Of a stretch of DNA of 54,522 nucleotides, positions 15,764-40,819 are shown one piece after another. The stretch lies in the IMG/VR virus record IMGVR_UViG_3300020395_000014, positions 1-54,522 of that record. One strand, given 5' to 3'. The position numbers were made by a program, and so were the translations under genes. The stretch is from a virus (lineage: Duplodnaviria; Caudoviricetes). The notes under the pieces are model-generated. The model was not told the DNA's origin, did no database searches, and saw nothing but the letters and a program-made list of their open reading frames with translations. Positions within the stretch are counted from its first letter, which is position 1, and each line of letters begins with the position of its first letter.

Positions 15764-16801
15764 ATGGCAATAGCACCCGTAAATAAGTTTATTAATATTG
15801 CTGTTCCAGTTTCTCCTGGATTGCAAAAAATATATGAGGTTCCAACTGGTAGTACATCTTTGTTGTTATATGCTCAAGTTGCAAATGTTGGTGTTGGCAT
15901 AACTTACCCAAAAGTTACATTTTTTCAAAGAAGAGAATCAAGAAGTACTGGTAATACAAGAGATGTAAGAATTATACAAGATGCAGAAATACCACCTAAT
16001 GATGCTTTAATATTAGTAGATGGTAGAATAGTTTTAGAAAAAACTCCTATAGTTCTTGATAGGGTTTATATTAAAGGTACTCAACAGAATGTTGGTATAG
16101 TTACTGGTGTTGATTATGATGAACCAACAGGAATTGCTACTGTAATGTGTAAAGAAAATCATGGATTTATTGCTGGAAATGAAGTTACTTTAGGTGGATT
16201 GTATTTTACTTGCTCATCATATTCTGGAATTACAACTAATGTTTTTCCAGACCCTCAACAATCTTATACTGTTGATAGTATAGTTGATAATGTTGGTATA
16301 TCAAGAACATTTTCAATGACTGTTGGAGGAGCAAGTGGTAATCCTCATACTTATAATTCTGCTTTACATAGATTCTCAAGAGCAAATTTTGAAGCAGTTG
16401 AAGTTATAAGTGGTGGTTCTTCTGGGTCTAAATTTAATGTTACTCATGCATTGTATAATGGAGATAATATTGCAAAAACTATGGAGGGTATTACTTTAGC
16501 ACCTGGAGAATTGGTATTGACTATAGGTGCTAATAGTTTATCTAATGGTGATAAAATTAAGATAGTGGATAATTCAGTATTCTTTAGATGCTCTATGGAT
16601 GATTATTATACGGAACATTCTTATCCACGAGATACTGATCCTGCTGGATCATCATCAACATCTACTAATGAACTAACAATTGCTGTTGTTGCTACTAATA
16701 GTAGTATAAGGGTTAATGTTGGTCAGAGTCGTGCTGGTGGATTTGTTGCTCCTTTGGAAATGGAATTAACTGCGAGTGTCTTAGAAAACAGTAATGTCTA
16801 A
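15764..16801 (+). CDS. virion structural protein
   Basis: Beta-rich; Y...TG..T.....HG...G..V.L.GL module typical of cyanomyovirus virion proteins. Confidence 0.6.
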   Translation: MAIAPVNKFINIAVPVSPGLQKIYEVPTGSTSLLLYAQVANVGVGITYPKVTFFQRRESRSTGNTRDVRIIQDAEIPPNDALILVDGRIVLEKTPIVLDRVYIKGTQQNVGIVTGVDYDEPTGIATVMCKENHGFIAGNEVTLGGLYFTCSSYSGITTNVFPDPQQSYTVDSIVDNVGISRTFSMTVGGASGNPHTYNSALHRFSRANFEAVEVISGGSSGSKFNVTHALYNGDNIAKTMEGITLAPGELVLTIGANSLSNGDKIKIVDNSVFFRCSMDDYYTEHSYPRDTDPAGSSSTSTNELTIAVVATNSSIRVNVGQSRAGGFVAPLEMELTASVLENSNV

Positions 16802-19163
16802 GAAGTATATTAGCGGTAGGGCTAAACGAACCCCCCAAGATCAATTAAAGGACGATAGGTATAGGTATCTTGGATTAGAACAGGCAGAGCCTAATCTTGC
16901 CGATCCTATAACTAGCCCTCCTGTTCCTTCTGGACAACAGTATCAGTTGGTTTCTGTTCCTGGTTTTGAGGGTAAAAGATATTGGGTTCCTGTTGGTGGT
17001 GGAGTAATTCCAGGTGCTATTAGTGTATATGATGAAGGTATTCTTGTTAGTGCTGCAAGTAGTATAACCCAACTTAATTTTGTAGGTGCAGCAGTAACGG
17101 CTCAAGTAGATGTTCAACATCCTTCTGGTCATCCAGGTATTGCTGCAACTGTAACAGTTATTCCTGTTACTATAGGAGAAGATCCTCCATTAGATCCAAA
17201 TCATGGTGAATTGTGGTGGGAAAATGATCATGGTGATTTGTGTATTTACTATGATGATGGTGATAGTAGTCAATGGGTAACAGTAATTGCTGGTGGTGGA
17301 GTTGGTCCTCCAGGTCCTCCAGGTTCTCCTGGACCAGGTGGTGGTCCTCCTGGACCTCCTGGACCTCCAGGTTCTGGTGGTGGTGATGGAAGTCCAGGTG
17401 AAGATGGTCCTCCTGGTCCTCCTGGTCCTCCAGGTGGTCCTCCTGGACCTCCTGGACCTCCAGGTTCTGGTGGTGGTGATGGTAATCCTGGTCCTCCTGG
17501 TCCTCCTGGACCTGGTGGTGGAACCATTGATAGTGTAAAGCAATACAGAACTCCTGGTGTAGAGAGGAGTTGTGAAAGTCCAGTATTTGTAGTTAATAAT
17601 GATACTATTGGTATTGGATCTACAAGTAATGCTTACGGAAATAGATTTTCTCAAGAGGAAGATCCAACAACTGCTCCTGGTGGTAGTTGGACTGTTTGTG
17701 ATGGTGATTTATGGTATGATACTTCAGCAACTTCAGGATCTGCTTCTGGTAGCGGTATTTCTTTAAATATAAATCTTCAAGATATTTTATCATTATCTAA
17801 TGATGGAGAACTTAGTGCTGATGATGCAAATGCGGATAATATAGTTTTTTGGGATGATTCTGAATCAAAATTAACATATTTAACTCTTGGTACAAATTTA
17901 TCAATCACTGGTAATACAATTAATGCTTCTGGTGGTGGAGTAACTGATGGAGATAAAGGAGATATAACCGTATCAAATGCTGGTACAAATTCTGAGAATT
18001 GGAATATTGATGCTGATACTGTTGGTACTACTGAATTATCTGCAACAGGTACAGCAGATGCTACAACATTCTTGAGAGGAGATAATACTTGGCAGCCTAT
18101 TAGTGGTATTGGTGGTGGAGGTGGTAGTCCAGGTGGTTCAACAACATTTCTTGGACTTACTGATACACCAAATTCATTTACTGCTAATAAGTGGTTAAAG
18201 GTAAATTCTAATGGAGATGCTCTTGAATGGACAGATGCTCCTACTGGTGCTACTGTAACTACTGATGATGTTCCACCAAGCAATCCTTCTGATGGCGATC
18301 TTTGGTGGGATTCTGTCAATGGTATTTTAAATGTATATTATGAAGATGCTGATAGTTCACAATGGGTTAATGCCAGTGGTAGAGGTACAGGTGGTAGTGG
18401 AGGTAGTGGTCTTAGTGTAGTTACTGATGATGTTCCACCAAGTAATCCTTCTGACGGTGATCTTTGGTGGGATTCTGTCAATGGTGAGTTAAAGGTATAT
18501 TACGAAGACGTTGATAGTTCTCAGTGGGTTGATGCTAGTGGCGGTGGTGCAGAAGGTCCACCTGGTCCTCCTGGTGCTGATTCAACTGTAGAAGGTCCAC
18601 CTGGTCCTCCTGGTACTCCTGGCGGTCCACCTGGTCCACCTGGTCCTCCTGGTGCTGATTCAACTGTAGAAGGTCCACCTGGTCCTCCTGGTGCTGATTC
18701 AACTGTAGAAGGTCCGCCTGGTCCTCCTGGTGCTGATTCAACTGTAGAAGGTCCGCCTGGTCCTCCTGGTGCTGATTCAACTACTCCTGGACCTCCAGGT
18801 CCACCAGGAGGTGGAGCATTAGTAACTACTGATGATGTTCCTCCAAGTAATCCTTCTGATGGTGATCTTTGGTGGAATTCTGTTGATGGTATTTTAAATG
18901 TATACTATCAAGATGCTGATAGTTCTCAGTGGGTTAATGCCAGTGGTAGGGGTACAGGAAGTGGCGGTGGTGGTACATCAGTAACTACTGATGATACTCC
19001 TCCAAGTAACCCTTCTGATGGTGATTTATGGTGGGATTCGGATACAGGTGAGTTAAAGATATATTATCAAGATGTTGATAGTTCTCAGTGGGTTGATGCT
19101 GCTAGTGGAGGAAGTTCTTCTGGCACTGGTATGTTTAGATCTAATTGGGATATGCCCCTCTAA
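16794..19163 (+). CDS. collagen-like fibre scaffold with five DGDLWW domains plus one half-domain
   Basis: GPP repeats; five P..P..G(D/E)LWW.....L..YY.D..SSQWV copies; ends MFRSNWDMPL. Confidence 0.8.
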   Translation: MSKKYISGRAKRTPQDQLKDDRYRYLGLEQAEPNLADPITSPPVPSGQQYQLVSVPGFEGKRYWVPVGGGVIPGAISVYDEGILVSAASSITQLNFVGAAVTAQVDVQHPSGHPGIAATVTVIPVTIGEDPPLDPNHGELWWENDHGDLCIYYDDGDSSQWVTVIAGGGVGPPGPPGSPGPGGGPPGPPGPPGSGGGDGSPGEDGPPGPPGPPGGPPGPPGPPGSGGGDGNPGPPGPPGPGGGTIDSVKQYRTPGVERSCESPVFVVNNDTIGIGSTSNAYGNRFSQEEDPTTAPGGSWTVCDGDLWYDTSATSGSASGSGISLNINLQDILSLSNDGELSADDANADNIVFWDDSESKLTYLTLGTNLSITGNTINASGGGVTDGDKGDITVSNAGTNSENWNIDADTVGTTELSATGTADATTFLRGDNTWQPISGIGGGGGSPGGSTTFLGLTDTPNSFTANKWLKVNSNGDALEWTDAPTGATVTTDDVPPSNPSDGDLWWDSVNGILNVYYEDADSSQWVNASGRGTGGSGGSGLSVVTDDVPPSNPSDGDLWWDSVNGELKVYYEDVDSSQWVDASGGGAEGPPGPPGADSTVEGPPGPPGTPGGPPGPPGPPGADSTVEGPPGPPGADSTVEGPPGPPGADSTVEGPPGPPGADSTTPGPPGPPGGGALVTTDDVPPSNPSDGDLWWNSVDGILNVYYQDADSSQWVNASGRGTGSGGGGTSVTTDDTPPSNPSDGDLWWDSDTGELKIYYQDVDSSQWVDAASGGSSSGTGMFRSNWDMPL
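18552..18783 (+). repeat. 39-bp tandem repeat encoding [13 protein letters not shown]
   Basis: gaaggtcc(a/g)cctggtcctcctggtgctgattcaactgta repeated about 5 times with one interruption. Confidence 0.9.
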
Positions 19164-19187: not shown

Positions 19188-19577
19188 ATGGCAGCAACAG
19201 TCTTAACAGGAACAATACCTAATGGTGGTAGTTTTAGTTACACCAATAATACTGGTGGAAATGTTAGATTTATAGTTTATCTTTTAAGTGCTGGCTATAG
19301 CAATGGTAGTAGTGCAGCTGGAACATTTAGAATTGGTGGTTCAGGTAATAATGGGGTACAATGGACTCTATATGAAACCACTAATGTTGGTAAATATGTA
19401 GCTAACGGGGGGTCCGCAGCATTTCCACATGGATTTGCAAAACAAAATGAAGGAGAACCATTTCCAGTTGAATTTATGTTAGGTGATGGTCATTCTGTTA
19501 ACTGGAATCCACCAACAGCAACTAGTTGGTTTTCTAATCCAAAATATAATTTTGTGGTGATACCAGAAAATGGATAA
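19188..19577 (+). CDS. small beta-rich virion protein (paralog of 38967..39341)
   Basis: MAATV..G....SYTN.TG.NVR ... EF.L.DGH ... YN.VVIPE.G shared with the 38967 ORF. Confidence 0.75.
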   Translation: MAATVLTGTIPNGGSFSYTNNTGGNVRFIVYLLSAGYSNGSSAAGTFRIGGSGNNGVQWTLYETTNVGKYVANGGSAAFPHGFAKQNEGEPFPVEFMLGDGHSVNWNPPTATSWFSNPKYNFVVIPENG

Positions 19578-19581
19578 CAAA

Positions 19582-19588
19582 ATAAATA
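19582..19588 (+). promoter_or_regulatory. late promoter ATAAATA
   Basis: Intergenic, before the GTG start at 19615. Confidence 0.65.
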
Positions 19589-19614
19589 CTTTCACATTAA
19601 GAGGTTAAAAATAG

Positions 19615-22600
19615 GTGGCAATAAATTTTCCAAATAGTCCAAGTACCAACGCAAGTCATACTGAAAATGGTTTGACTTGGATTTATGATGGAACTACTTG
19701 GAATTTACAAACAACTATACAATCTGGTGCAACTACATTTACTGGTTTAACTGATACTCCAGGTTCTTATACTGCTGATAAATGGGTTAAGGTAAATGCT
19801 GCAGGAACTGGTATTGAATTAGTTTCTGCTCCTTCTGGTGGTGGAGTAACTGATGGAGATAAAGGTGATATAACTGTATCAGCTTCTGGTGCTACTTGGA
19901 ATATTGATGCTGGTACTGTTGGTACTACCGAATTATCTGCAACGGGAACAAAAGACGCTACAACATTTTTAAGAGGGGATAATACTTGGCAACTTATTAG
20001 TAGTATTACTGGTAGTGGTAGTGTATCTGATGGAGATAAAGGTGATATTACTGTATCAAACTCTGGTGCTACTTGGAGTATTGATGATGATGCTGTTGAT
20101 TCAGCAGAAATAGCAAGTGGTGCTGTAGATCTTGACCATTTATCTGCAACTGGTACGAAAAGCAATACAACATATTTAAGAGGAGATAATACTTGGGCAA
20201 CTATTACTGCTGGTAGTGGTAGTGTATCTGATGGAGATTATGGAGATATAACAGTATCATCTTCAGGTGCAAATTGGAATATTGATGCCGATACTATTGG
20301 TACTACTGAATTATCTGCTACAGGAACAAAAGATGCAACAACATTTTTAAGAGGGGATAATACTTGGCAACTTATTAGTAGTATTAGTGGTGGCGGTGGT
20401 GTATCAGTAACTACTGACGACACTCCTCCAAGTAACCCTTCTGATGGAGATCTTTGGTGGGATTCTGTTGCTGGTGTCTTAAATGTATATTATCAAGATG
20501 CAGATAGTTCTCAGTGGGTTAATGCTTCTGGTAGTCATGGTGGTGCTAATGTAGTTACTGATGATACACCACCTTCTAATCCTAATGACGGTGATCTTTG
20601 GTGGGATTCTAATAATGGTGAGTTAAAAATATATTATGAAGATGTTGATAGTTCTCAGTGGGTTGATGCTGGTGGAGGCGGTGGATCAGGTGGTGCAAAT
20701 TCTGTACAAGTACCAGTATTTGATCAATCAGAAACTACTACTGGATCTTCATTTAATGGTACAGCAACCCGTGTTGATTTTGCTAATAATCCTGCTAGTG
20801 ATCGTCATGTAGATGTTAAGTTTGAAAAATTAAATAATAATGATATATATGAATTTAAACTTGAATATTTTTCTAGTGGTACTAACAGTTATAAAGGATG
20901 GTATCTGGCTGATAAGCAATCTACAGGAATTGATGGTAATAACACTGCAGATGGACAACGTAAGATATCAGGAAAATTACCCAGTGGTCAAAGATGGAAA
21001 GCTTATAGTCAAACCCAAGATGCATCTGCTGGTGCTACTTTCTGGTTAGAGGGAGATTCCCAAGGTAATACTACTCTTCCAGGTTGGGATTGGCCATCAA
21101 CAGGTCTTGCAACAGAGTGGGATCCACAAACTCCAGGTACCTATGGTGGTATAGACACTTTTCATATCGTCATTGACATGCCACGTAAGAAGATGTGGAT
21201 CAAAGAGTACAATGAATCATATGAAGAGGGTTATGGACTCTGGTTACATGCACATAATCATCCTGCACATGCACTTAGTGTCGTTGATCCTACGTCAACC
21301 CCATCAATTTTTATAAGAGATACTGGAACTGGTGAATATTATTTCAGTGTTGGTATGTTTATACCAAGTGATGGTCAGGCATATTGTACTATGGAACCTA
21401 TACCAGAACAGTACAGTGCGTTCCGTAATCTTAGTGGAAGCAGTAGTTCTAGTAGTTCTGGTTCAACTACATTTACTGGTTTAACTGATACTCCAGGTTC
21501 TTATACTGCTGATAAGTGGTTAAAGGTTAATGCTGCTGGAACTGCCCTTGAATTTACTAATGAACCCAGTAGTGGTGTTACAGATAAGATAGAAGAAGGT
21601 GATAGTAAGGTCGAAGTAATTGATACTGGAACTGATGGAAGAGTTATAATCACAATTGATGGTGAAGAAAAGTTTAAATTTGATGAGGCTGCTCATGGGA
21701 TGGGCGGTCATTTTACAGTCAATGGTGGTGGTTTATCTGGAGAAGGGGCAAAAGTAACTTTAGATAGTGGTGATGGTACTGGTAGTGTAAGTTTCTTTAA
21801 TGCTGCAACTACTGGAGGTACTGAGACTTATAGTTTACCAACAGCATATCCAACTGATGATGGACAGATTCTATCATCAACTATGGCTGGAGTTATGTCA
21901 TGGGTAGATGATAATAGTGGTACTACTGCTACAGATAATATTTTTGAATCCAATAGTAAAGTAGAAGTAATTGATACTGGAACTGATGGAAGGGTTATAA
22001 TCACACTTGATGGTGAAGAAAAGTTTAAATTTGATGAGGCTGCTGATGGAAAAGGTGGTTGGCTTACAGTCAATGGTGGTGGTGTATCTGGAGAAGGTGC
22101 AAAATTAACTTTAGAGAGTGGTGATGGTAGTGGTGGTATAAGTTTCTTTAATTCAAAAACTACTTCAGGTAGTGAAAGTTATAATTTACCATTAGCATAT
22201 CCAACTGTTAGTGGATATGTTTTATCAGCAACTACTACTGGTGATATGTCATGGGTTGCTAATTCAGGTGGTAGTGGTCTTCAAAATATTGTAGAAGATC
22301 TTACACCACAGTTGGGTGGTAAGTTAGATACTAATACTCATAATATTGATTTTACTGATGATTCTGCTGCTTATTTTGGTGGATTCAGTTCATCTTATGG
22401 TTATGGATTATCTCTACATCATGACCCTAATAATGTTAATGGAAATATTTCTTTTATAGACGATAGGAGTTATAATGGTCTCCATATCATGTATGGAACT
22501 TCAACTGATTCTTTCGGTAATTATGTAAGTAAGGTATTATTTAAACAAAGAACGGGAAATGGTATTCCAGCATATGATCTAAAGGTATGGAATAGTGGTG

Positions 22601-25600
22601 TTCAACCACGTAATATCCTTGATAAGGATACTGAAGCAGGAACAGCAGGTCAAATATTAAGTGCTACTGGTCTTGGGGGTCTTGATGGGTTAGATTGGAT
22701 TAATAATAATTTCTTAACTCTTAGTGATACACCAAGTACATTTACTGCTAATAAGTGGTTAAAGGTTAATGCTGCTGGAAATGCTCTTGAATGGGCTAAT
22801 GAACCTACTGGTAGTGATACTAATACAACTTATAGTATATCTTGTGCTGATGGTGACAATGCAGATGAAGAAAAGATTAGATTAACTGCTGGTGGTGATG
22901 GTAGTGGAACTGATGATATAGTTTTAGAAGCTGGTACTGGATTATCAATAGCAAGGTCTGGAGATAAAATTACACTTACAAATACTGTAAGTAATACAAA
23001 TACACAATTATCAACTGAACAAGTTCAGGACATTGTTGGTGCAATGGTTGATGGTGGAACTGAAACCAGAATAGGTGTAACATATGATGATACAACAGGA
23101 AAACTTGGTTTTGTTGTTGATGATATGACTGGAGGAAGTGTTCAAGATAAGATACAAGAAGGTACTACAGTTGCAGAGGTATATCAAGCTGGTGGTGGAA
23201 CAGGAAAATTCACTGTTGATATAGAAGGTACAGAAGCAATTGCAATTGATGCAAATCGTCAAATATTAATTAGTGGTAATCAGACTGGAGATAATATAGC
23301 AAAAATTTATAATTCTGATGATGGAACAGGTGGTGGTGTACTTGGAATATATGCTTCATCAAATAATGCTACTCCAAGAGATGTAAGATTCTATAGTGGT
23401 GGTGGTACAGCAAATGAGACATTCCGTATAGGAAAAGATGGTGAAATACATTCATTTGGAAGAATGACCTTTAAGCATCTTGATTCAAGTTTAGAGGGTG
23501 GACAAATATCCTTTGAGAATATTGTTGGTGATAGAGTATATTCAATTGATGCTTATGGAAATAGCAATGCTAATTCTATTATTAGAATTATTGATGAACA
23601 AACATTGACTGGAGGTGTAGGTACTCAAAGATTCTGTGTTAATAGATCTGGTGCTTTCGGAATTGGTAATGTAGGAAATGAAGATTATGGAGCTTCAGGT
23701 AAGGTATTATTGAGTCAAGGAGCGACTCAACCACCTAAATGGGAAACTGTTTCTGGTGTTCCTGCTGCTGCTGGTGGATCTAATAATCAGTTCCAATATA
23801 ATAGCAGTTCATCACTTGCTGGAAGTGATATACTTGTAATGACTAATGATACAGGATATACTGGTAGTGGTCCAAGTTTAACTATTGATGGATCTGGTGG
23901 TAGTGGTGGTGGTTTTGGTAATATTACTTGGGAACCTGGTATTAATGGATTATCTTTCACAAGAGATGCATTCGCACTTTGGGGAGCACCTGATAATAAC
24001 ACAATAAATATGAAAGCTAGTATTGGTTATTCTAGCTCTGTTCAAAGATGGATTCTGAATAACCCTGATACTGGGGGTATGAGTATTGAGAGTAGAGGTG
24101 ATGTAATATTTCAAAAACAGAACAGTCCTAACACTGTTCATATGGTTATTAACCAGACTACTGGTGTTGAGATTAAGAATAGTTTAGATTTATCAACTGC
24201 TACTATTAAAGATAAAGATGGTGACGTAGGAACTCCAGGACAAGTATTAAGTTCAACTTCAACTGGAGTTGATTGGATTACTGTTTCTGGTGGGGGTGGA
24301 TCACCATCTACTCCAGGTGGTAGTGATACCCATGTACAATTTAATAATGATTCTTCATTTGGTGGTGATTCTACGTTTACCTTTGATACTTCTTTATCTA
24401 CAAATACATTAACACTTGAAGGTGCATTCAATTTAGCAGCAGATAGTAGTGCTACTGGTACTGGTGCTAGGATAACTGTTGGTGCTGGTGGAGAATTAGA
24501 AATATTCCATACTTCTAATAACACCTCTGGTATAAGAAGTTCTGGTACTGGTGTATTTGCTATCCAGAATAATAATCAAACTGGTAATAACAATTGGAAT
24601 AAAGCAATACAAATCCAAGCATATGGTGATATTCAATTACGTCATATGACTGGTCCTGATGCCGTCTATTGTACTGCTGGAGGATCTGTTGGTTTATATT
24701 ATAGTGGACAAGGTCCTAAATTAGAGACCACTGCAACGGGAATAAAAGTTAATGGTACTATTGAGACTGGTGGTAATATACCTGTTGTTAATGTAACTAA
24801 TTGGTCAAGTACTGCTGATGATAATGCAGGTACATCAAAATCAGGAACTATTAATAGAGCTGCTTTTGAGAAAGCAATACAGTCTTTATCTAGTACTGGT
24901 GGTATTCTATACGTTCCTCATGGAGATTATCCAATAACTGGCACAATAAATTTACATAATGGAACTTACTATTCAACAGTTAATAGTATGAAGTATAGTT
25001 TTGATGGTGAGGAACAACCTACTATTACTTTACAGAAGGGTGGTACTTATAAATTTGATATGTCAGATAGTACTAATAATAATCATCCATTAAGATTTTC
25101 AACAACTGCTGATGGTACTCATGGTGGTGGTACTGAATATACTACTGGAGTAACTCAGGTTGGTACTCCAGGTCAGGCAGGTGCATATACACAAATAACG
25201 GTAGATGCAAGTGCTCCAGTAACTTTATATTATTATTGTCAACAACATAGTAATATGGGAGGAACTAGTAATATTTCTGATTCATCTGGAGGACCTTTAG
25301 GTGATGGTGGTGGTATAGTTATAATGGGACCAAATTATAGAATTGGTTCTGCTGATTTAGAAGGAGCAAGATTAATATCACAAAACGCTACTGATGATAT
25401 ATTTAAAATAACTAATGTAAGAAATGTAGAAATTAAACAGTTAACATTTGATTCTGCAGTTACAAGAACTGCTGGTGCTGCTATTCATTGTCATTCTACT
25501 ACAAATACTCAACAGATTAAACTTGAGAGACTTTATATTAGACAACACTTTAGTGGAATTAAAATGGATGGACACTCTATTTCAATTCTTAGAGATATTG

Positions 25601-26466: not shown

Positions 26467-26471
26467 AGTTA

Positions 26472-26478: not shown

Positions 26479-26502
26479 TAAAAAAGATAGTATAAAAGTA
26501 TA

Positions 26503-29500
26503 ATGGCTATTAATTTTCCTAACAGTCCAACTACAAACGAAACACATACTGCTAGTGGTAAAACTTGGAAGTGGGATGGTACATCTTGGAATTTAGAATC
26601 AAATGCAAGCAATTATACTTTACCTATTGCTACTGCTTCTGCTCTCGGTGGTATTAAGATAGGTGATAGATTAACAATAGATTCTTCCACTGGTGTTTTA
26701 GACGCAGATGTTCAGTCAGGTGGTGGAGGAATATCTGATGGAGATAAAGGAGACATAACAGTATCAGCTTCAGGTGCTACTTGGAATATTGATGCTGATA
26801 CTGTTGGTACTACTGAATTATCTGCAACAGGTACAGCAGATGCAACAACATATTTAAGAGGGGATAATACTTGGCAACTTATCAGTGGTATTGGTGGTGG
26901 AGGTGGTGGTCTTCAAAATATTGTTGAAGACACGACTCCCCAGTTAGGTGGAACTTTAGATACAAACAATCACGGTATTAATTTTGCTGATAACGTAGAG
27001 ATGCGTCTTGGTACAGGCAATGGTGCTGGTGGTGATGGAAGAATAAAACATGATGGTAGTAAATTTTTAATTGATAATCCTGTTGAAGGTACTATTCAAT
27101 TAGGTCCAGCTCCTAATGGTCACGTTGAGATATGGAATAATACTTTTAGACTAAAGAATGGTGATGGAACTAAGACATACATGATGACCAATCATCAAAA
27201 TGCAAAAGAAATTTCTTTGTATTTTGATGGTAATAAAACTTTTGAAACTACATCAGATGGAATTCAGGTTTTTAATGGATATTCTGCTGGTGGTAAAGTA
27301 AGTTGCCACAAGTTAAATATTAGTTCTGATGATGATGCTGGTAATGATGCTTGGATTCAGATAGGATCTAGTGCAGACCTCAAACTGTACCACGATTCTA
27401 CAGACAGTTACATTAATAATATTACTGGTGCTCTTAAATTAGTTAGTCCTAATGGTATAAACATTGGAGGACTTACATACCCTCAAGTTAATGGTTCGAC
27501 TGGAGAAGTTCTTACTTCTGATGGATCAGGTGGTATCTCATGGCAATCTTCATCTAGTAGTGGTAGCACGGTTAAGAATATTACAGTTACAGTAAGCACA
27601 GCTGCTAATGGTCAGGCATCAGGTGTTTTTTACATGGATGGCGTACAGAATCCTCCAATGGATCATATTGAGAGGGGAGTCACTTATGTCTTTGATCAGG
27701 CAGATTCATCTAACGAAACTTTTAATAGTTCAAATCATCCTTTGATGTTTAGTGCAGGTGATGATGGTGACCATAATGGTAATGGACACTATATGACAGG
27801 CATTCAATATAAATTGGATGGTGTAAACAAGACTATGGCAGAGTATGTTTCTGGATTCAATGCTGCCACTGATCGTACAGTAACATGGGTAGTTCCTACT
27901 GATGCACCTGATACAATTTACTATTGGTGTCATCACCATACAAATCAAGGTAATAGTATTAGTATCAATAATGCTTGGACTGCTTTACCTACATTTACTG
28001 AACTTACTGATACTCCAAGTTCTCTTACTGCTGATAAGTGGCTAAAGGTTAATGCTGGTGGTACTGCTTTAGAATATACCAATGAACCTACAGATACTAC
28101 TTATAGTAATGTTACTACGTCTGCTGCTGGATTAGTCCCTATATTACCAGCTTCATCTACTGGTAAGTTCTTTAAAGATGATGGTACTTGGACTGACACA
28201 ACTGATACAACATATTCTCAATCATCAGTTGCTGATAGTAGTAATGTAAAATTAAGATTGAGTGATGGTACTACTGATGATGATATTCTTCTTTCAGCAG
28301 GTACTAATGTTACTTTCAGTAATATAACTGCTGCAGGATTTACTATTAATTCTGCTGGAGGTGGAAGTGGAGGTGGAAGTGGAAGTGGACCTCAATGCCC
28401 AACAATAGACACAACTGCTTCTTCTAGTGGTTGGACATATTCAAATATGGTTGATGGTCATAATCGTACTGTAAGTGTTGGTGCTGCAGGTCATATGGAC
28501 CTTAAGTGTATAAAATTAGATAATGATACAATTTATGAATTTAGAGCTGCTGCTAATAGTGGTCAGTATTGGGGATGGTATATGAGTGATGATGCAAGTA
28601 TTAAAACTGAGGGTCAATCTCAAGATCTAACAAATAATTTATATAAAGTATTCCAAGGTGGTTTTCCAAGTGGTAATTGGATAGCAAATGGTGATCAGGC
28701 TGGTAATATTGTAATGAATTCTGGATTTGATTGGACTACTCATGGTGCTACAGAAAAATTAACCAGTATAAATTGGGGCAATGAACTTCATTTTGTAATT
28801 GATATGCCACATCGTAAGGTGTGGATAAAGGGTATTGACCATTATGGTAATCAAGAAGCAGCTTGGTGGGTTTATACTACTAATCAAACTCCTGGTACTC
28901 CTGTTCGTGCAGATAGTAATCCAACTTTCTTCTTAAGAGAAGATGGTGACATGGCATCTCTTTCTGGAGATTATTACTTTAATATGGCAGTGTTTGCTGG
29001 TCATTTTGGAACTATTACCATAGAACCAATACCACGAACAGAATCCGTATTCCGTTCTATTGGTGGTGGTATATCTGATGGAGATAAAGGTGATATTACT
29101 GTATCAAACTCAGGTGCAACTTGGAATATTGATTCTGGTACTGTTGGTACTACTGAATTATCTGCTACAGGAACAAAAGATGCGACAACATATTTAAGAG
29201 GTGATAATACTTGGGCAACTGTTAGTGGTGCAACTGATACAACATATGACTTAGTATATACAGAGCATAGTTTAGGATCTGGTAGTGGACTTGGTAATGA
29301 TTTAATCATTAAGTTAAGAGATAGTAATAATAATGATGATGAGATTAGTATAGTTTCTGGTCCTAATGTATCATTTAGTCATGATACTACTAATAAGAAA
29401 CTTACTATTTCTTCTTTTAATAATGGAATTAGTGATGGTGACAAAGGAGATATTTCAGTAACAAATACTGGTGCTGTTTGGAGTATTGATAATGATGTAA

Positions 29501-31665
29501 TAGAAGAGAAACATATTAATGCTGGTGGTACTGTTGGTGCTAATAAAGTTTTAGTATATGATGCTGCTGAAGCTACTAACTGGAAATGGGCAGATCAATC
29601 TGGTTCTGGGGGCGGTGCTACAGATAAGATAGAAGAAGATAATAGTTCAGTAGAAGTAGTAGATAGTGGATCTAACGGAAAGATTGCACTTACACTTGAT
29701 GGCAATGAAAGGTATCGCTTTACGGACGGTGTTTTGAGTTTTGCTAGTGGAAGTTCTATAAGGATGACTGGTATAGCAGGTGGAATTACTGCTGGTTTGC
29801 ATATGGATGGTGCTGGTACTACTGGTTCTGATGGACATGGTAGAGTAGCTATTTTTGGTAATACTGGAGATTTCAAGATATTAGATAGTACTGGTTCTGG
29901 TGACACCAATATGGCTGTCTTCACCAAAAATGATTCAGTTGATTTGTACTTTAATGGAACAAAACGTCTTGAAACAGCAAGTTCGGGAATTAATGTTGTT
30001 GGAACTACCACTACAGGACAATTAAATGTAACTGGAGTTTCTACATTTGTTGGTGGTATAAAGGATAAAGATGATAGTACAGGAACACCAGGTCAGGTAT
30101 TAACTTCTACTGCTGGAGGTCTTAAATGGGATACTGTTAGTGGTGGAAGTGGTGGTGCTAATGTAACTACTGATGATACTGCACCATCAACTCCTTCAGA
30201 TGGTGATTTATGGTGGGATTCTGTTGCAGGAGAATTAAAGATATATTATCAAGATGCTGATAGTTCACAATGGGTTGATGCTGCTGGTAGTATTCCATCA
30301 TCCACACATCCTACATTTACTAATGTTGCGACTTCATCTATTAATGTATCTGGTATGGCTACATTAGGTGATACTGGGATTGGTCATACTGTTGGTATAG
30401 GATCTACTGCTTATTTTGGTGATGGTGGAATACACCTTCAAGGAGTATTGAAGGGTAGGGAAGTTGGTAATAAAATTAGAATTTCCAGTCATATAATTCC
30501 TGAATCAAATGCACAATATGATTTGGGTAATGCTGAGTATAAGATTCGACATTTATTCTTATCGGATAATAGTATAAAGTTTGTATCTGATACCAATGTA
30601 GAGAAATCGTTAGGTGTTGATTCTAATAACTTAATGTTTGATGGTAAACAAGTTCTATCAAATGTTGTACTTACTGGACTTGATAATAATGATACTTTAA
30701 AATATAATGGTACTAATTGGGTTAATACACCAATAGCAGCAGGTTCATTTACTGGATTAACTGGTACACCTTCAACATATACTGCTGATAAGTGGTTAAA
30801 GGTTAATTCTGGTGGTACTGCTTTAGAATATACTGATGCTCCATCAGGTTCATTTACTGGATTAACTGGTACACCTTCAACATATACTGCTGATAAGTGG
30901 TTAAAGGTTAATTCTGGTGGTACTGCTTTAGAATATACTGATGCTCCAAGTGGTGGCGGTGGAAGTCCAGGTGGGTCTGCTAATCAACTCCAAATTAATG
31001 ATGGAAGTGGTTTTGCTGGTTGTAATTTACAGTATGATAGTTTTTTAAATGGTTCACTTGCATTTCATGATGATGCTGGTGTATTTGGTTCAAGAATAAC
31101 TTGCTACCATAGTAGTATTGGTGGAGGAGATAGTTCTATGCTCTTCTATGTTGGTGGTACTACTTTCACCTTCCCTTTACAGTTAAAGAATACTGGTGGC
31201 ACATCTGGTGGTAATGAAGTTTATGTTAATGGTACTCTTAGTAAAGCTGGTGGTTCGTTTAGAATACCTCATCCTGTTGCTGGTCTTACAACTACAAAGG
31301 ACTTAGTTCATTCATTTATTGAAGGTCCACAAATGGATCTTATCTATCGTGGTACTGTTGCTTTAGTTGCTGGTATTGCTACAGTTAATCTTGATACTAA
31401 GGCTGGTATGACTGAAGGTACTTTTGAAGCATTGAATAGAGATGTACAATGTTTTACATCAAATGAAACGGGATGGACTGTTGTTAAAGGATCTGTTACT
31501 GGTAATAAATTAACCATACAATCAAAAGCTACTACTTCTACAGATACTGTTTCGTGGATGGTTGTTGGTGAAAGACAAGATGCTACTATTAAAGGATTAA
31601 ATATGACAGATGCTGATGGTAATCTTATTGTAGAACCAAATCAAACTTCAACACCTACCAGCTAG
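26503..31665 (+). CDS. 1720-aa modular tail fibre
   Basis: MAINFPNSP head; LP.AT...LGG.K.G repeat; shared modules; C-terminal K..GSF.I.HP......L.HS..EGP......RG...ER.D domain. Confidence 0.85.
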   Translation: MAINFPNSPTTNETHTASGKTWKWDGTSWNLESNASNYTLPIATASALGGIKIGDRLTIDSSTGVLDADVQSGGGGISDGDKGDITVSASGATWNIDADTVGTTELSATGTADATTYLRGDNTWQLISGIGGGGGGLQNIVEDTTPQLGGTLDTNNHGINFADNVEMRLGTGNGAGGDGRIKHDGSKFLIDNPVEGTIQLGPAPNGHVEIWNNTFRLKNGDGTKTYMMTNHQNAKEISLYFDGNKTFETTSDGIQVFNGYSAGGKVSCHKLNISSDDDAGNDAWIQIGSSADLKLYHDSTDSYINNITGALKLVSPNGINIGGLTYPQVNGSTGEVLTSDGSGGISWQSSSSSGSTVKNITVTVSTAANGQASGVFYMDGVQNPPMDHIERGVTYVFDQADSSNETFNSSNHPLMFSAGDDGDHNGNGHYMTGIQYKLDGVNKTMAEYVSGFNAATDRTVTWVVPTDAPDTIYYWCHHHTNQGNSISINNAWTALPTFTELTDTPSSLTADKWLKVNAGGTALEYTNEPTDTTYSNVTTSAAGLVPILPASSTGKFFKDDGTWTDTTDTTYSQSSVADSSNVKLRLSDGTTDDDILLSAGTNVTFSNITAAGFTINSAGGGSGGGSGSGPQCPTIDTTASSSGWTYSNMVDGHNRTVSVGAAGHMDLKCIKLDNDTIYEFRAAANSGQYWGWYMSDDASIKTEGQSQDLTNNLYKVFQGGFPSGNWIANGDQAGNIVMNSGFDWTTHGATEKLTSINWGNELHFVIDMPHRKVWIKGIDHYGNQEAAWWVYTTNQTPGTPVRADSNPTFFLREDGDMASLSGDYYFNMAVFAGHFGTITIEPIPRTESVFRSIGGGISDGDKGDITVSNSGATWNIDSGTVGTTELSATGTKDATTYLRGDNTWATVSGATDTTYDLVYTEHSLGSGSGLGNDLIIKLRDSNNNDDEISIVSGPNVSFSHDTTNKKLTISSFNNGISDGDKGDISVTNTGAVWSIDNDVIEEKHINAGGTVGANKVLVYDAAEATNWKWADQSGSGGGATDKIEEDNSSVEVVDSGSNGKIALTLDGNERYRFTDGVLSFASGSSIRMTGIAGGITAGLHMDGAGTTGSDGHGRVAIFGNTGDFKILDSTGSGDTNMAVFTKNDSVDLYFNGTKRLETASSGINVVGTTTTGQLNVTGVSTFVGGIKDKDDSTGTPGQVLTSTAGGLKWDTVSGGSGGANVTTDDTAPSTPSDGDLWWDSVAGELKIYYQDADSSQWVDAAGSIPSSTHPTFTNVATSSINVSGMATLGDTGIGHTVGIGSTAYFGDGGIHLQGVLKGREVGNKIRISSHIIPESNAQYDLGNAEYKIRHLFLSDNSIKFVSDTNVEKSLGVDSNNLMFDGKQVLSNVVLTGLDNNDTLKYNGTNWVNTPIAAGSFTGLTGTPSTYTADKWLKVNSGGTALEYTDAPSGSFTGLTGTPSTYTADKWLKVNSGGTALEYTDAPSGGGGSPGGSANQLQINDGSGFAGCNLQYDSFLNGSLAFHDDAGVFGSRITCYHSSIGGGDSSMLFYVGGTTFTFPLQLKNTGGTSGGNEVYVNGTLSKAGGSFRIPHPVAGLTTTKDLVHSFIEGPQMDLIYRGTVALVAGIATVNLDTKAGMTEGTFEALNRDVQCFTSNETGWTVVKGSVTGNKLTIQSKATTSTDTVSWMVVGERQDATIKGLNMTDADGNLIVEPNQTSTPTS
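30740..30948 (+). repeat. exact tandem duplication, 105-bp period
   Basis: 30740-30843 is identical to 30845-30948. Confidence 0.95.
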
Positions 31666-31702: not shown

Positions 31703-34474
31703 ATGGCTATAAATTTTCCAAACAGTCCGAGTAATGGTCAAGTACATAGTGCTTGGACAGGTGTTATTAATAAGTCTTGGAAATGGGACGGAACCAAGTG
31801 GAATATAATTGGTGGTGATGGTGGTAGTGGATTCCAATCCAGTTTTCTTTCACTTACTGATACTCCAAGTTCATTTACTGCTGATAAATGGATTAAGGTA
31901 AATGCTGCTGGAAATGCTCTTGAATTAACTAATGCTCCTTCAGGTGGTGGAGGATCTACTACATTAGATAAGATAGAAGAACTTGATAGTAAGGTAGAAA
32001 TAACTGATAGTGGAAGTAATGGTACAGTTATAACCACCATAGATGGTACAGTTGCTGCTACATTATCAGCTAATAGTGGTGTTGCAAAGTTTACTCTTGA
32101 AGGTGATGTTAATACATCAGGTTCTGGTGCAATACTTGATCTTTCTGGTGGTGGATCTAGTGTAGGAAATATAACATTCCAGAATAAAAGGACAACAAGT
32201 GGAACTAATGCTTATGAATTACCATTAGCGTATCCAACTTCTAGTGGATATGTTTTATCATCAACTACTGGTGGAGAGATGTCATGGGTTGCCAATTCAG
32301 GTGGTGGAATTACTATGGATTCATCCATAGGATCTATATTTTCAGTAAGTGGTAGTGGAGTATTTTCTGCTGGTGATCCAGAAGCAGATAAGATTCTGTT
32401 TTGGGATGATTCTGCAAGTGAATTAAGATATTTAATGATGGGTACTAACGTTACTATCAATGGAACTACTCTTGATGTTAGTGGTGGATCAGCATCTGCT
32501 GGAGGAAGTGCTAATTATATTCAATATAATGATGGTAGTAATGGATTTGCTGGTTCTTCTCTGTTTAGAATTAATACGTCTAGTGTACGATTATTAGAGT
32601 TTTGGGATTCAGGAAATTCAGGTGCAACTGCCACTGCTGCTATAGGAGTCTATTGGGAGTCTATAGCTGGAAATATACCTGAGAAAAATGAACTTTTGTT
32701 CTATGGAGCAATGTCCAATGCTTCTGGTCCTGCTTTTAGTGTTGGAACAGATTATGTACAGCTTCGTCAAAAGTTAAAAGATGGAACAGGTGCTTTTGGT
32801 ACTTCAGGACAGTTTTTAAGGGTAGATACAAACGGTAGTACTAAATGGGAAACTTATAGTGGTGGTGGAGGAGGAGGTAGTAGTCTAACCTATGATTTAC
32901 TATATGCTGAACATAGTTCATCAAGTGGTTCGGGAACTGGTAATGATGCGATTATTAGACTAAGAGATAGTAGTAGTAATGATGATGATGTTTATTTGGT
33001 TGCTGGTAGCAATGTTACATTATCTCACGATACTTCTAGTAAAAAGATTACTATTGCTGCCTCTGGTGGTAGTGGTGGCGGTGGTGCTACAGATAAGATA
33101 GAAGAAGGCAATACAAGTGTAGAATGTATTGATACGGGTACTGATGGTAATATTGTATTTAAAACAGAAGGAAGTACTACAATTGAGCTTACAACACTTA
33201 AACAGTTGAAAGTTTATGGTACTCAGACTGGAAATAATGTAGCAGGTTTCTATAATGATACTAACTATTTTGGAATATTTGCTTCATCTAATAATCTAAC
33301 TAATAGACCTATTACATTATATACTGCTTCTGGTACTGCTTCAGCAGCTTTGACAGTTGCTGCTACTGGTGAAACTCTTCTTCATGCAACAGATGACATG
33401 AATAATGAAGGTGGTCATTTACAATTTGAAAATTCACAAGGAAATCAGGATTATGCAATTGATGTTTATGGTGGAAATTCAGGTGTTGCTGGAGAGGCTG
33501 ATCATGTAATAAGAATTATTGATCAGATAACACAAACTGGAGGTACTGGTACTCAAAGATTTGCAGTTAATAGATCTGGTGCTTTCGGAATAGGTCATGT
33601 AGGATCAGTTGATTATGGAACTTCAGGTGAAGTATTAATGAGCCAAGGTGCTAATACACCACCTAAATGGGAATCTGTTTCTGGTGGCGGTGGCGGTGGA
33701 TCCGATACAACCTATGATTTAATATATGCCGAACATAGTTCATCAAGTGGTTCGGGAACTGGTAATGATGCTATTATTAGATTAAGAGATAGTGGTAACA
33801 ATGATGACGATGTTTCTTTGGTTGCTGGTAGTAATGTTACATTAACTCATGATACTTCTAATAAAAAGATTACTATTGCTGCCTCTGGTGGTGGAGGTAG
33901 TAGTCTTTCTATAGGTACAAATGTAACGGATGTTCTTTCAATAAGTGGTGGTGACATTATTGCAGATGATGCAGGTGCAGATAAATTAGTATTTTGGGAT
34001 GATTCTGCAGGTAAATTAACGTATTTAACTGTTGGTTCTAATCTTACTGTTACTGGAACTACTATTACTGCCTCTGGTAGTGGTGGAGGTGGTGGTACTT
34101 TAGCATCAAGAACTTCGATCACTATACCTACTGAAAGTTATACTGGAGGAGAAATAAAGAATAAGACCTTTACAGGATTTAAATCTTATGCTCTTTTCAA
34201 AATCCTTACAACAAGCGATGCATGGGTAAGATTATATACAGATTCAACTTCAGCAAATGCTGATGCTAATAGACTTGAAGGAACAGACCCTGCTCCAGGT
34301 TCTGGTGTTATTGCAGAAGTAATTGGTAATGGTACTTTTATGATGTCTCCTGGAGTTATTGGATTTAACGGTGAGGCGAACTACTCTACAACCATGTATG
34401 CAAAAATAAAAAATAGATCCAGTTCTTCTGCATCTATATCTGTTAGTTTCCAAGTATTACAGTTGGAGGCTTAA
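31703..34474 (+). CDS. 923-aa modular tail fibre
   Basis: MAINFPNSP head; DKIEE, ADK..FWDDS and YDL.YAEHS modules shared with neighbours; C-terminal GFKSYAL...AWVRLY.D.....D..R....DP.PGSGVIAEV domain. Confidence 0.85.
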   Translation: MAINFPNSPSNGQVHSAWTGVINKSWKWDGTKWNIIGGDGGSGFQSSFLSLTDTPSSFTADKWIKVNAAGNALELTNAPSGGGGSTTLDKIEELDSKVEITDSGSNGTVITTIDGTVAATLSANSGVAKFTLEGDVNTSGSGAILDLSGGGSSVGNITFQNKRTTSGTNAYELPLAYPTSSGYVLSSTTGGEMSWVANSGGGITMDSSIGSIFSVSGSGVFSAGDPEADKILFWDDSASELRYLMMGTNVTINGTTLDVSGGSASAGGSANYIQYNDGSNGFAGSSLFRINTSSVRLLEFWDSGNSGATATAAIGVYWESIAGNIPEKNELLFYGAMSNASGPAFSVGTDYVQLRQKLKDGTGAFGTSGQFLRVDTNGSTKWETYSGGGGGGSSLTYDLLYAEHSSSSGSGTGNDAIIRLRDSSSNDDDVYLVAGSNVTLSHDTSSKKITIAASGGSGGGGATDKIEEGNTSVECIDTGTDGNIVFKTEGSTTIELTTLKQLKVYGTQTGNNVAGFYNDTNYFGIFASSNNLTNRPITLYTASGTASAALTVAATGETLLHATDDMNNEGGHLQFENSQGNQDYAIDVYGGNSGVAGEADHVIRIIDQITQTGGTGTQRFAVNRSGAFGIGHVGSVDYGTSGEVLMSQGANTPPKWESVSGGGGGGSDTTYDLIYAEHSSSSGSGTGNDAIIRLRDSGNNDDDVSLVAGSNVTLTHDTSNKKITIAASGGGGSSLSIGTNVTDVLSISGGDIIADDAGADKLVFWDDSAGKLTYLTVGSNLTVTGTTITASGSGGGGGTLASRTSITIPTESYTGGEIKNKTFTGFKSYALFKILTTSDAWVRLYTDSTSANADANRLEGTDPAPGSGVIAEVIGNGTFMMSPGVIGFNGEANYSTTMYAKIKNRSSSSASISVSFQVLQLEA

Positions 34475-38155: not shown

Positions 38156-38157
38156 GA

Positions 38158-38185: not shown

Positions 38186-38941
38186 ATGTCGAACCATATT
38201 GATTTTCCTAATAGTCCTACTATAAATGAGACTTACCAATATGGTAGTGCTATATGGAAGTGGGATGGTGTAGTATGGAGAAGAATCGACGGTGCTGGAA
38301 ATACAGGTGCTCCTGGACCTGAAGGTCCTCCAGGACCTGGTGGATTAACTGGTCCTCCAGGTACTCCTGGAACTCCTGGTGATGATGGGGATGAAGGTCC
38401 TCCTGGTCCTCCAGGTCCTCCAAATGGACCTCCTGGACCTCCAGGTCCCGATGGAGATGATGGAACTCCTGGTAATCCTGGTCCTCCAGGAACTGGAAGT
38501 CCAGGTACTCCTGGTACTCCTGGAACTCCTGGACCTCCAGGTGAAGATGGTAATCCTGGACCTCCTGGTCCTGCTGGTGGTCCTCCTGGTCCTCCAGGAA
38601 ACCCAGGTCCTCCTGGTCCTCCCTCTCCTGGACCTCCAGGTCCTGATGGAGATGATGGAACTCCTGGTACTCCAGGTACTCCTGGACCTCCTGGTCCTGC
38701 AGGTATTGCTGGACTACAAATCAGTGAAACTCCACCAACTTCTCCTGCACCTTCAGAGGGTGATTTGTGGTGGGAAAGTGACACTGGAGCATTATATGTG
38801 TATTATAATGATGGTAATAGTGATCAATGGGTAGCAGTAGCACAAGGTCCTGCTGGATCTCCTGGTCCTCCAGGTTCTGCTGCTGGTAGTGGTGCTGGTC
38901 CATTTGAAAGTCAATGGCATATTCCAATGGGATTGCCATAA
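38186..38941 (+). CDS. short collagen-like fibre/adaptor (FPNSP head, one GDLWW domain)
   Basis: IDFPNSP...WKWDG..W; GPP repeats; [19 protein letters not shown]...QWV; ends [12 protein letters not shown]. Confidence 0.82.
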
Positions 38942-38966: not shown

Positions 38967-39341
38967 ATGGCAGCAACAGTATATTCAGGATCGGGTAATT
39001 GGAGTTATACCAATAGCACTGGTGAGAATGTTCGTGTGATTATTGGTATTGCTCTTGCAGCAGATAATTCTCAAGCATCGACTGTTGGTATTAAATTGAG
39101 ATTTGGATCAGCTGGATCTGGTTATATGTTTGAAGAAACTAGTGGAACTAATGATAGATTTGTAGGTTTTGGTAAACATATTACAAGTTCTGGTCAAATG
39201 ACCAGAGCTGTAGCAACTAATGGTGGAACTTTTGTAGATGAATTTTGGCTTGCAGATGGACATACTGCTAATTTAGATGCTGTTAGTGGTTCGTACCCTA
39301 TTAAATGGTACAATATAGTGGTGATACCAGAGAGTGGATAA
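38967..39341 (+). CDS. small beta-rich virion protein (paralog of 19188..19577)
   Basis: Shared N- and C-terminal motifs with the 19188 ORF. Confidence 0.75.
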   Translation: MAATVYSGSGNWSYTNSTGENVRVIIGIALAADNSQASTVGIKLRFGSAGSGYMFEETSGTNDRFVGFGKHITSSGQMTRAVATNGGTFVDEFWLADGHTANLDAVSGSYPIKWYNIVVIPESG

Positions 39342-40819
39342 TGGCAGCATTTGATTTTCCAAATAGTCCTGAACTAGACGAGACTCATACCGAAAATGGT
39401 GTGATGTGGAAGTGGAATGGGTATGCTTGGGATAGAGTTCCAAGTAATGGACCTGAAGGTCCTCCTGGTCCTCCTGGTCCTGCAACTCCTGGACCTCCTG
39501 GTCCTCCAGGAACTGGTAACCCTGGTCCTCCTGGTCCTCCAGGAAATACTCCAGGACCTCCTGGTCCTCCTGGTCCTCCAGGCACTGGTGGTGGTGCAGG
39601 AACATTTTTAGAATTAACAGATACTCCTGATACTTCTCCTGGATATTCTGGACAATCTGGTAAAACAGTTAAAGTAAATTCGGGAGAAACTGCTTTAGAG
39701 TTTACTCCATTAGATTCTGGTCCTCCAGGACCTCCTGGTAATCCTGGTCCTCCAGGAGAAGATTCAACTACACCAGGTCCTCCTGGTCCTCCAGGCAGTG
39801 GTCCTCCTGGTCCTCCAGGTGAAGATGGTGAGGATGGTACTCCTGGAACTGGTAATCCTGGTCCTCCTGGTCCTCCAGGAACTGGAACTCCTGGTCCTCC
39901 TGGTCCTCCAGGTACTAATGTCGATACAACTTATTCATATACTGTTGAAAATGCTGGCGGTGGAAATGTTAATTTAAAATTAGACGGAACAGAAAATACT
40001 TCATCCGCAACTGATTATACTATTAAATTCAATGCTGGAACTGCTCTTACAAATTCAGTTCAGAGTCAGAATGAATTTACAATGAATCTGGATAATACTG
40101 CTGTAACTCCTGACTCATATACTAATGCAAACATAACTGTTGACCAACAAGGTAGAATAACAGCAGCATCGAATGGTTCTGCTGGTGGTGGCGGTGGTGG
40201 TGCAAATTTACAAACATTTACATCATCTGGAACTTGGACAAAACCATCTGGATATAGTCATTTTTGGGTAATTTGTATTGGTGGAGGTGGTGGATCTGGT
40301 GGTGCTAATGCACAAGATGATGATGGATGTGATGGTGGTGCTACTGGTGGTGGTGGAGCTGGTGGTATGGGTATGTGGATTTATGCTGCATCAAGTTTAC
40401 CTGCTTCAATGTCTGTAACTGTCGGAACTGGTGGAGGTGGTGGTTCCTCTGGTGGTGGATGGGTTGGTGGAACTGGTGGAACTGGTGGAACAACAACATT
40501 TGGAAATACTGGTCTTTATGGTGCAGGTGGTACTGGAAGTAGTGGAACAGATTACTCTCCTAATACTAGAGTATCTGAGGGTGGTACTGGTGGAGCAGGT
40601 AATGGTTTTGGGATGAATGGTGCAAATGGTGGAGATGGTAATATGGCCACAAGTGCTGGTAATACTACTGTCGATGAACATGCTGCAAGAGCTCAAGGTG
40701 GAATGTCTGCTTGGGGTGGTAGAAGTTATGGAGAAGGTGCAGATGGTGTTGTAACCTGTGATCAGAATACTTCTGGTAATTCTGGATCAAATGGGTGTAT
40801 AATGGTATTTGGTTTTTAA
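39341..40819 (+). CDS. collagen-like fibre with Gly-rich C-terminal domain
   Basis: Start coupled by TAATG ([10 protein letters not shown]...WKWNG..W); GPP repeats; V.P.SYT.ANITVD..GRIT.AS; FTSSGTW.KP.G.....V..IGGGGG domain. Confidence 0.85.

Follow-up and report, generated by a model that had tools for sequence, protein, structure and literature searches.

The virus record IMGVR_UViG_3300020395_000014, all 54,522 bases of which were analysed here as the window and which is estimated to cover 22% of the genome, carries an unbroken plus-strand series of fibre-like open reading frames (ORFs, each named by its first nucleotide) at 12.4-47.8 kb. T4-like tail and baseplate genes lie 5′ of this region (baseplate wedge, tube cap, hub and hub-lysozyme), and the closest relatives are the Prochlorococcus phages P-SSM2 and P-SSM5, with ~79% nucleotide identity over 1.3 kb. 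Three sequence signatures recur in the cluster: an N-terminal head beginning with FPNSP, a 40-residue module, and a C-terminal tail accompanied by a small gene for a predicted jelly roll. We propose, tentatively and with slightly less than even confidence, that the cluster encodes a multi-fibre apparatus made from a shared kit of very small parts, namely the module as a node, the N-terminal head and a three-part joint. In this joint, a tail-ended protein, a jelly-roll protein of ~130 aa and the head of the next protein would be linked end to end, in the manner of T4 gp34-gp35-gp36. Judged by motifs and gene order, it appears to be, of the attachment sites conceivable in this lineage, the one best supported by the genomes.

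Among the viruses that infect the main primary producers of the ocean, marine cyanomyoviruses are some of the most abundant, and we know of no account of how their many fibre gene products are arranged in the particle. Taken together, the three signatures would tell primary, secondary and chained fibres apart from sequence alone. For P-SSM2, T4 fibre genes 10, 11, 12, 34, 35 and 37 are reported as not identified (PMC1079782).

The proposed three-part joint

The joint has a recurrent order. A module, or a related hairpin, is followed by a Gly-rich linker and the tail F-x-S-x-W-x-(I/M)-P; 23-30 nt later comes a gene of ~125-150 aa, and the next gene begins with a head. The window contains this order twice, as 16794-19188-19615 and 38186-38967-39341, with the following features.

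16794..19163, plus strand: putative primary (virion-anchored) fibre, 789 aa, with an N-terminal domain (aa 1-130), five modules, collagen-like runs and a C-terminal tail; matches PHROG tail-fibre families
17178..17306, plus strand: module 1 of ORF 16794, immediately 3′ of the N-terminal domain and immediately 5′ of a collagen-like run
18267..18557, plus strand: modules 2 (18267-18395) and 3 (18429-18557) of ORF 16794, a tandem pair recognised by the module pattern and modelled with AlphaFold2
18834..19121, plus strand: modules 4 (18834-18962) and 5 (18993-19121) of ORF 16794, a tandem pair recognised by the module pattern
19128..19160, plus strand: C-terminal tail GMFRSNWDMPL of ORF 16794, behind a Gly/Ser linker
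19188..19577, plus strand: small protein, 129 aa, candidate joint or adaptor, 24 nt past ORF 16794 and 37 nt ahead of ORF 19615
19615..26466, plus strand: head-bearing fibre, 2283 aa, GTG start, with its head at 19615-19734 and tandem modules at 20419-20691 (20419-20547 and 20563-20691)
38186..38941, plus strand: connector-like protein, 251 aa, with a head of the 'WxWDGxVWRRI' subtype, a collagen-like run, a module at 38732-38860, a Gly linker and a tail at 38900-38938
38967..39341, plus strand: small protein, 124 aa, paralogue of ORF 19188, 25 nt past ORF 38186 and abutting the ATG of ORF 39341
39341..40819, plus strand: head-bearing fibre, 492 aa, with its head at 39341-39460, collagen-like runs and a Gly-rich C-terminal domain; its open frame reaches back to 39305, ahead of the ATG at 39341

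We tallied this arrangement over the window, part of P-SSM2 and the non-duplicate loci, which together hold 24 distinct small-gene frames. A gene ends within 100 nt 5′ of all 24, with 20 of the gaps at 23-27 nt, and 23 of these upstream genes carry the tail motif together with a module; the remaining one is a second small gene. Downstream, a head gene begins -1 to +40 nt from 21 of the 24 small genes, and 20 of these 21 gaps measure -1 to +7 nt. Small genes not followed by a head are two that lie at a locus end and one that lies 5′ of a second small gene. Conversely, a small gene was scored directly 3′ of 21 of 22 tail-ended frames, and the 22nd overlaps a small gene by 1 nt. The flavour of the tail also correlates with the subfamily of the small protein.

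The two small proteins of the window share 34% identity (E 5e-15), and ORF 19188 was modelled as an eight-stranded jelly roll (pLDDT 80.9). Neither matched Pfam or PHROG, and none of 14 members of the family has a relevant Pfam family at E<=1. A Foldseek search of the PDB with the model returned no match at E<=0.001, VIA-align found generic jelly rolls only (Z <=8.0: Ena pilins, GOLD, CUB and C1q/TNF), and the ESM Atlas gave only unnamed clusters. The sole longer form found among 8000 scored candidates is P0196 (354 aa), in which a Gly-rich region interrupts the jelly roll. This insertion resembles the Gly-rich domain at the C-terminus of ORF 39341.

Some tail-bearing proteins are tiny and consist of head, module and tail only, such as one of 157 aa in locus L010; these look like connectors rather than receptor-binding fibres. 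In other clades, a different short hydrophobic tail stands at the C-terminus behind the module (for example ..FLLMGA, ..AIAMSIVFGG or ..LMEIGP) and may be a second kind of joint peptide. It was found in loci L015, L017, L030, L033, L043, L050, L059, L071, L072 and L075.

According to our proposal, the module would be a structural node of fibre shafts, not a dedicated socket, used after N-terminal anchors, between collagen-like runs, in tandem and before C-termini, where it would probably act as a trimer-registering knot. The head would mark secondary fibres, which lack their own virion anchor and need to be attached through the N-terminus. The window would then encode two chains, one from ORF 16794 through 19188 to 19615 and one from ORF 38186 through 38967 to 39341. 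The heads of ORFs 26503, 31703 and 38186 may compete with the other heads for these joints, or else bind to modules or to the baseplate. For ORF 38186, contact of the head with ORF 16794 or a protein of its type (hub-type, below) is conceivable, because in P-SSM2, L010 and L011 the gene right behind the hub-type gene starts with this head subtype. The data show the motifs with their positions, the homology signal, the gene order and the presence of relatives in virions; that the parts trimerise, which of them touch, and in what order they assemble is inferred. A complex prediction with one copy each of the ORF 16794 C-terminus (module 5 and tail), ORF 19188 and the ORF 19615 head, the last being scored, gave an ipSAE of 0.01 in both runs against a mark of 0.32; single copies may be the wrong stoichiometry for trimeric fibres, and the result bears neither for nor against binding.

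Several points weigh against the proposal. The joint accounts for only two of the five window heads, the small-protein family occurs in a minority of loci, and no 'Rosetta stone' fusion of the small protein with a tail- or head-bearing protein was found among 8000 scored candidates. The small protein could also be an assembly chaperone of the upstream fibre, and fibre chaperone genes usually sit downstream of their fibre. It matched no known chaperone family in Pfam or PHROG; since its fold is a generic jelly roll (best Z 8.0), it may still be a chaperone of a new type. Trimerisation of the module draws on weak fold matches (Z <5) and on its position, and the monomer model folds confidently alone. 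Two further observations suit a docking socket as well: the module of hub-type proteins and of phage S-TIP28 lies exactly where a branching domain would sit, and head and module counts co-vary (Spearman 0.83 over 15 whole records chosen by us, with no control for phylogeny or fibre-gene number).

The head and the module

The original prediction that five genes of the window (19615, 26503, 31703, 38186 and 39341) begin with the FPNSP head was borne out: the six-frame translation contains five occurrences, none more than 7 residues from a start codon. At the DNA level, a degenerate FPNSP pattern matched six sites, namely these five heads and one out-of-frame site at 2289, and the heads score 62-77 bits with a head hidden Markov model (HMM). 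Two of the head-bearing fibres lie outside the joints described above.

26503..31665, plus strand: head-bearing fibre, 1720 aa, with its head at 26503-26622 and a single module at 30175-30303
31703..34474, plus strand: head-bearing fibre, 923 aa, with its head at 31703-31834, which contains a 4-residue insertion, and without a module

The restriction of the head to N-termini also extends widely beyond the window. It sits at residue 6 in 45 of 45 database proteins, and each of 171 HMM matches, drawn from 79 head-seeded IMG/VR loci, the window and part of P-SSM2, adjoins a start codon; in module-seeded loci it is N-terminal in 132 of 133 matches. In ORFs 38186 and 39341, as in most of the 45 relatives from the database, the head leads straight into collagen-like runs.

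Modules were counted as full matches to G[DE][LIVM]W[WFY]...YY.D...QWV on the six-frame translation, which returned nine copies, all on the plus strand and placed as had been predicted: five in ORF 16794, two in ORF 19615, and one each in ORFs 26503 and 38186. They share 15 invariant columns and score 73-85 bits with the module HMM, and ORF 16794 holds a tenth, degenerate copy ('DGDLWYD') at nt 17703. The counts of five heads and nine modules are no genome totals, because the window covers only about 22% of the genome. The further claim that the module is only internal holds within the window and fails elsewhere, as protein P0133 begins with a full copy, and in several proteins a module is the last element.

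A profile of the nine window copies, searched against 1.84 billion proteins, revealed a very large family that has no Pfam model, with 9983 cluster representatives at E<=1e-3, 2587 at E<=1e-10 and up to 18 stretches per protein. The 150 best of these 9983 proteins carry 2-8 copies each at our cut-off, often in tandem and with a spacing of ~45 aa, and 13 of the 150 bear a head. The module stands between two collagen-like runs in 15 of the 45 head proteins, and also forms long tandem arrays from which collagen is absent; a shorter form, which lacks the D..SSQ loop, is common. Scans of the window ORFs showed no Pfam family for head or module, and PHROG families of tail fibres and tail collars cover both. 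PF18050 (Cyclophil_like2) scores 35.4 bits with ORF 16794 (cut-off 22.7), yet no single stretch passes: each module matches profile positions 46-84 weakly, and these matches add up to the score, as they do in 6 of 48 other module proteins. A full-text literature search on the motif strings, which did not cover supplementary files, gave no description of head or module among the matches listed.

The AlphaFold2 model of the tandem modules 2 and 3 of ORF 16794 shows two mini-domains of four strands each, separate from one another (block-mean pLDDT ~85-91) and connected by a Gly linker of low confidence, and the module is thus modelled as an autonomous beta mini-domain of ~40 aa. Its fold matches in VIA-align are weak: the collagen XV trimerisation domain 3n3f_B (Z 4.6, rmsd 4.8, 45 aligned residues), residues 583-625 of CBA120 TSP3 (Z 4.6, rmsd 2.5, 41 aligned, 27% identity) and 9bnb_A (Z 4.3, rmsd 3.8, 44 aligned). 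The Z scores of 3n3f_B and 9bnb_A fall in the range of chance arrangements and are tied with unrelated entries. Foldseek with the module model found no match in the PDB at E<=0.001. Sequence searches of the PDB with profiles of the module, the head and the tandem pair matched no solved structure meaningfully, and chains of fibritin or foldon were absent at E<=10.

Profile comparison points to kinship between the two elements. An hhalign comparison of 154 modules with 130 heads gave a probability of 74% (E 2.7e-5, score 22.8 over 33 columns), and all 30 reversed or column-shuffled controls scored lower, the highest at 16.6. The matched positions are the P-x-x-P, a Gly, an aromatic hairpin and the last Trp. 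The signal is clear with broad alignments alone: 105 modules against 42 heads yielded a probability of only 6% (P 0.006), and shallow profiles from the window alone yielded none. At the N-terminus of P0133, the full module stands where the head would be. Head and module are therefore probably homologous variants of one mini-domain. We take the head to be a short N-terminal relative or derivative of the module that marks fibres attached through their N-terminus, and the gene neighbourhoods support in outline that head-bearing proteins are secondary fibres which have no recognisable virion anchor and adjoin module-bearing fibres.

A bolder extension, which we regard as improbable, is that head and module are self-complementary forms of the mini-domain, such that N-terminal copies would co-assemble with internal copies or with the joint of tail and jelly-roll protein. 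If true, many unrelated phages, T4-like and T7-like cyanophages among them, could build chains and branches of fibres combinatorially through universal connectors, and one particle could present several alternative tips on a single primary fibre.

Relatives of both kinds of protein are virion components in phage S-CREM2. Table 3 of the S-CREM2 study lists ORF112, 115, 122, 126, 114 and 127 among the proteins detected in virions (PMC10665884); by their positions, the first four are module proteins, and ORF114 and ORF127 are head proteins. The ~1940-aa 'baseplate wedge protein, intermediate' of cluster C cyanophages contains modules as well; it is encoded in S-CREM2 (OR473000.1) at 77594-83407 and has homologues in S-H34 and S-B68. 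This wedge protein was also detected in the S-CREM2 virion. The baseplate itself therefore carries modules.

Possible alternatives: docking sockets or independent fibres

In the original prediction, the modules were docking sockets and the FPNSP heads their plugs, ORF 16794 was a hub for several head-bearing fibres, and the modules of ORFs 19615, 26503 and 38186 allowed more branching. Part of this picture is supported in outline, namely secondary fibres with a shared N-terminal docking element that lie beside anchored fibres. The role given to the modules fares less well, as the module is a generic repeat that is probably homologous to the head, and we consider it doubtful that modules are the sockets of heads.

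The placement of the module directly behind an anchor speaks in favour of sockets. The N-terminal domain of ORF 16794 (130 aa) is common to nine frames in other loci, including the homologue of PSSM2_023 of P-SSM2. It has no Pfam family and no PDB relative in a profile search, and the ESM Atlas offered weak leads only (PF18050, PF26696 and Mtd_N). In the window protein and, at frame aa 131-176, in five other hub-type proteins (from L001, L008, L010, L011 and L041), a module stands straight behind this domain. A head gene comes 28-49 nt after the hub-type gene in P-SSM2, L010 and L011. The T7-like phage S-TIP28 has a similar layout: in its fibre 1, one module (aa ~138-172) is the only recognised element between the T7 tail anchor (PF03906, aa 6-103, E 3.5e-18) and the beta-helix of the spike body (from aa 206), and the next gene encodes a head followed by a pectate-lyase-like spike.

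This second spike of S-TIP28 (MZ803112.1, 35568-37019) carries the motif 'EAPNDGQQYGRQNQSWTVIV' behind its head, which we take to resemble a widespread foldon-like hairpin motif of phage fibres. In the window, the collagen-rich fibre at 36428-38155 (575 aa) begins with another small hairpin-like motif, and its C-terminus matches the end of the hub-type proteins in P-SSM2, L010 and L011. Because of this match, the window hub seems to have swapped its tip for extra modules and a tail.

The distribution of the two elements across genomes also favours sockets in part. A head gene is present within 600 nt 3′ of 47 of the 75 headless module proteins that have downstream room. Heads occur in 63 of 78 module-seeded loci, and 14 of the 15 loci without one are cut by a contig end. 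Genomes with many heads but no modules would contradict sockets, and every one of 13 head-bearing records has a module. The expected co-variation of heads and modules is seen as the correlation quoted above, but the numbers are unequal, with 2 heads and 10 modules in S-B68, 6 and 10 in S-CRM01, and 10 and 13 in S-H34. Equal numbers of heads and modules had been suggested by the first eight records, and the idea was dropped after these three genomes. Single-query tblastn had likewise indicated modules without heads in S-TIP28, S-RSM4 and S-CAM1, which was dropped once the head profile found heads there.

Other observations stand against sockets. The match of five sockets to five heads breaks down across relatives, in which hub orthologues have 1, 2, 3 or 5 modules whatever the number of heads. 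One related record pairs a single hub module with seven head matches, and the window has five heads and nine modules in its 22% of the genome. Modules are found at C-termini, in 75 of 289 head proteins and in tandem arrays (up to 8 copies at our cut-off, up to 18 stretches by the search count), and the place of the head at an N-terminus can be taken by a full module. SS120-1 and the Bacillus phage Thrax1 have a weak module match and no head. In head-seeded loci, 68 of the 103 heads that begin a run away from the locus edge come after a gene that lacks a module. For two of the five window heads, the C-terminal tail with the small jelly-roll protein is a much more specific neighbour.

The window fibres also share further units. 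A ~50-aa unit, 'GDKGDITVS..GATWNIDA.TVGTTELSATGT.DATTFLRGDNTW', is common to several of them (16794-19163, 19615-31665, 31703-34474 and 39341-40819) and is present in several copies; 'LTDTP.S(Y/F)TADKWLKVNAAGTALE' (LTDTP...KWLKVN) and 'KIEEGDSKVEVIDTG' are shared as well. The LTDTP unit lies close behind the head in ORFs 19615, 31703 and 39341. The window fibre proteins are mosaics of shared units, and shuffled, mosaic fibres are also noted for P-SSM2 (PMC1079782).

Several units in common point to rampant shuffling, and this counts for a view in which the fibres are independent of one another. Heads and modules would then be mere homotrimerisation or registration knots of fibres anchored separately to the baseplate, the small protein would be an assembly chaperone, and synteny would reflect the inheritance of cassettes in a mosaic cluster. 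Many headless module proteins are indeed complete fibres with tips of their own (C1q, Collar, Laminin_G_3 or Peptidase_S74 domains), the module has its weak fold likeness to collagen trimerisation domains, and the collagen-like runs directly behind the heads of ORFs 38186 and 39341 and of most database relatives would suit a nucleating knot. We nonetheless judge this view unlikely. The head is strictly N-terminal while the related module is free in its position, which suggests that the free N-terminal end matters for attachment. The short head-module-tail proteins have no tip and look like connectors. The fixed gaps (24 nt on the 5′ side and ~1 nt on the 3′ side) and the near one-to-one tie of tail, small gene and head are tighter than inheritance of cassettes by itself would require, and a separate Phage_tail_APC chaperone gene is already present 3′ of ORF 39341.

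Neighbouring genes and known fibre systems

Other genes of the region were annotated from Pfam matches. A subtilase-like protein of 647 aa (34478-36421; PF00082, E 5.8e-25) is encoded amid the fibre cluster, where it might serve to process fibres. After the last head-bearing fibre, 40832-41890 holds the Phage_tail_APC chaperone gene (ORF 40832; PF16778, E 7e-19) and a 2OG-Fe(II) oxygenase gene (PF13640, E 5e-15); we speculate that the oxygenase may hydroxylate the collagen-like fibres. The 1882-aa fibre at 42181-47829, which is conserved with PSSM2_033 of P-SSM2, ends in a Peptidase_S74 intramolecular chaperone domain (PF13884) and has neither head nor module.

Small domains that adjoin collagen offer one comparison for the module. 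As in the collagen XV/XVIII multiplexins, a beta-rich unit of ~40-55 aa lies directly beside Gly-X-Y runs, and the foldon of T4 fibritin is a small trimerisation domain to which we also liken it. The module differs from the multiplexin domains in its chance-range Z scores, its lack of a PDB sequence match and its presence in collagen-free tandem arrays.

The T4 long tail fibre is jointed through gp34-gp35-gp36/37, and gp35 has ~370 aa. The order of proximal fibre, small connector and distal fibre is the same here in 21 of 24 small-gene cases; the connector is likewise separate and small, and a putative virion anchor is likewise on the proximal protein. Unlike in T4, the proteins show no Pfam or PHROG similarity to gp34, gp35 or gp36, and the connector is a jelly roll of ~130 aa in the model. 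The signature of the joint is a short C-terminal peptide with an N-terminal mini-domain, and five fibres share the same head. The roles of the T4 long tail fibre genes are summarised in PMC1079782.

Several phages carry two or more receptor-binding proteins on an anchor-branched stem, among them G7C (gp66/gp63.1), CBA120 (TSP1-4), K1-5 and the KP32-like Klebsiella phages, as outlined in PMC6872550 and in the abstract of PMC13352976. In KP32 and G7C, a branching domain stands at the position that the module holds in S-TIP28 fibre 1 (PMC6872550). As in these systems, a first fibre has a putative N-terminal virion anchor and then a small domain, the genes are adjacent, and later fibres without an anchor begin with a short N-terminal element conserved in the phage group (the five window ORFs and 45 of 45 relatives); S-TIP28 reproduces this layout. 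Unlike in them, Pfam and PHROG scans of 15 window ORFs showed no T4gp10-like domain, although no search was aimed at T4 gp10, and the candidate for docking, a mini-domain of 40 aa, is unrelated to that domain, is probably homologous to the N-terminal element and is present in many repeats. The system is a variant of the jointed and branched fibre systems, built from uncharacterised parts.

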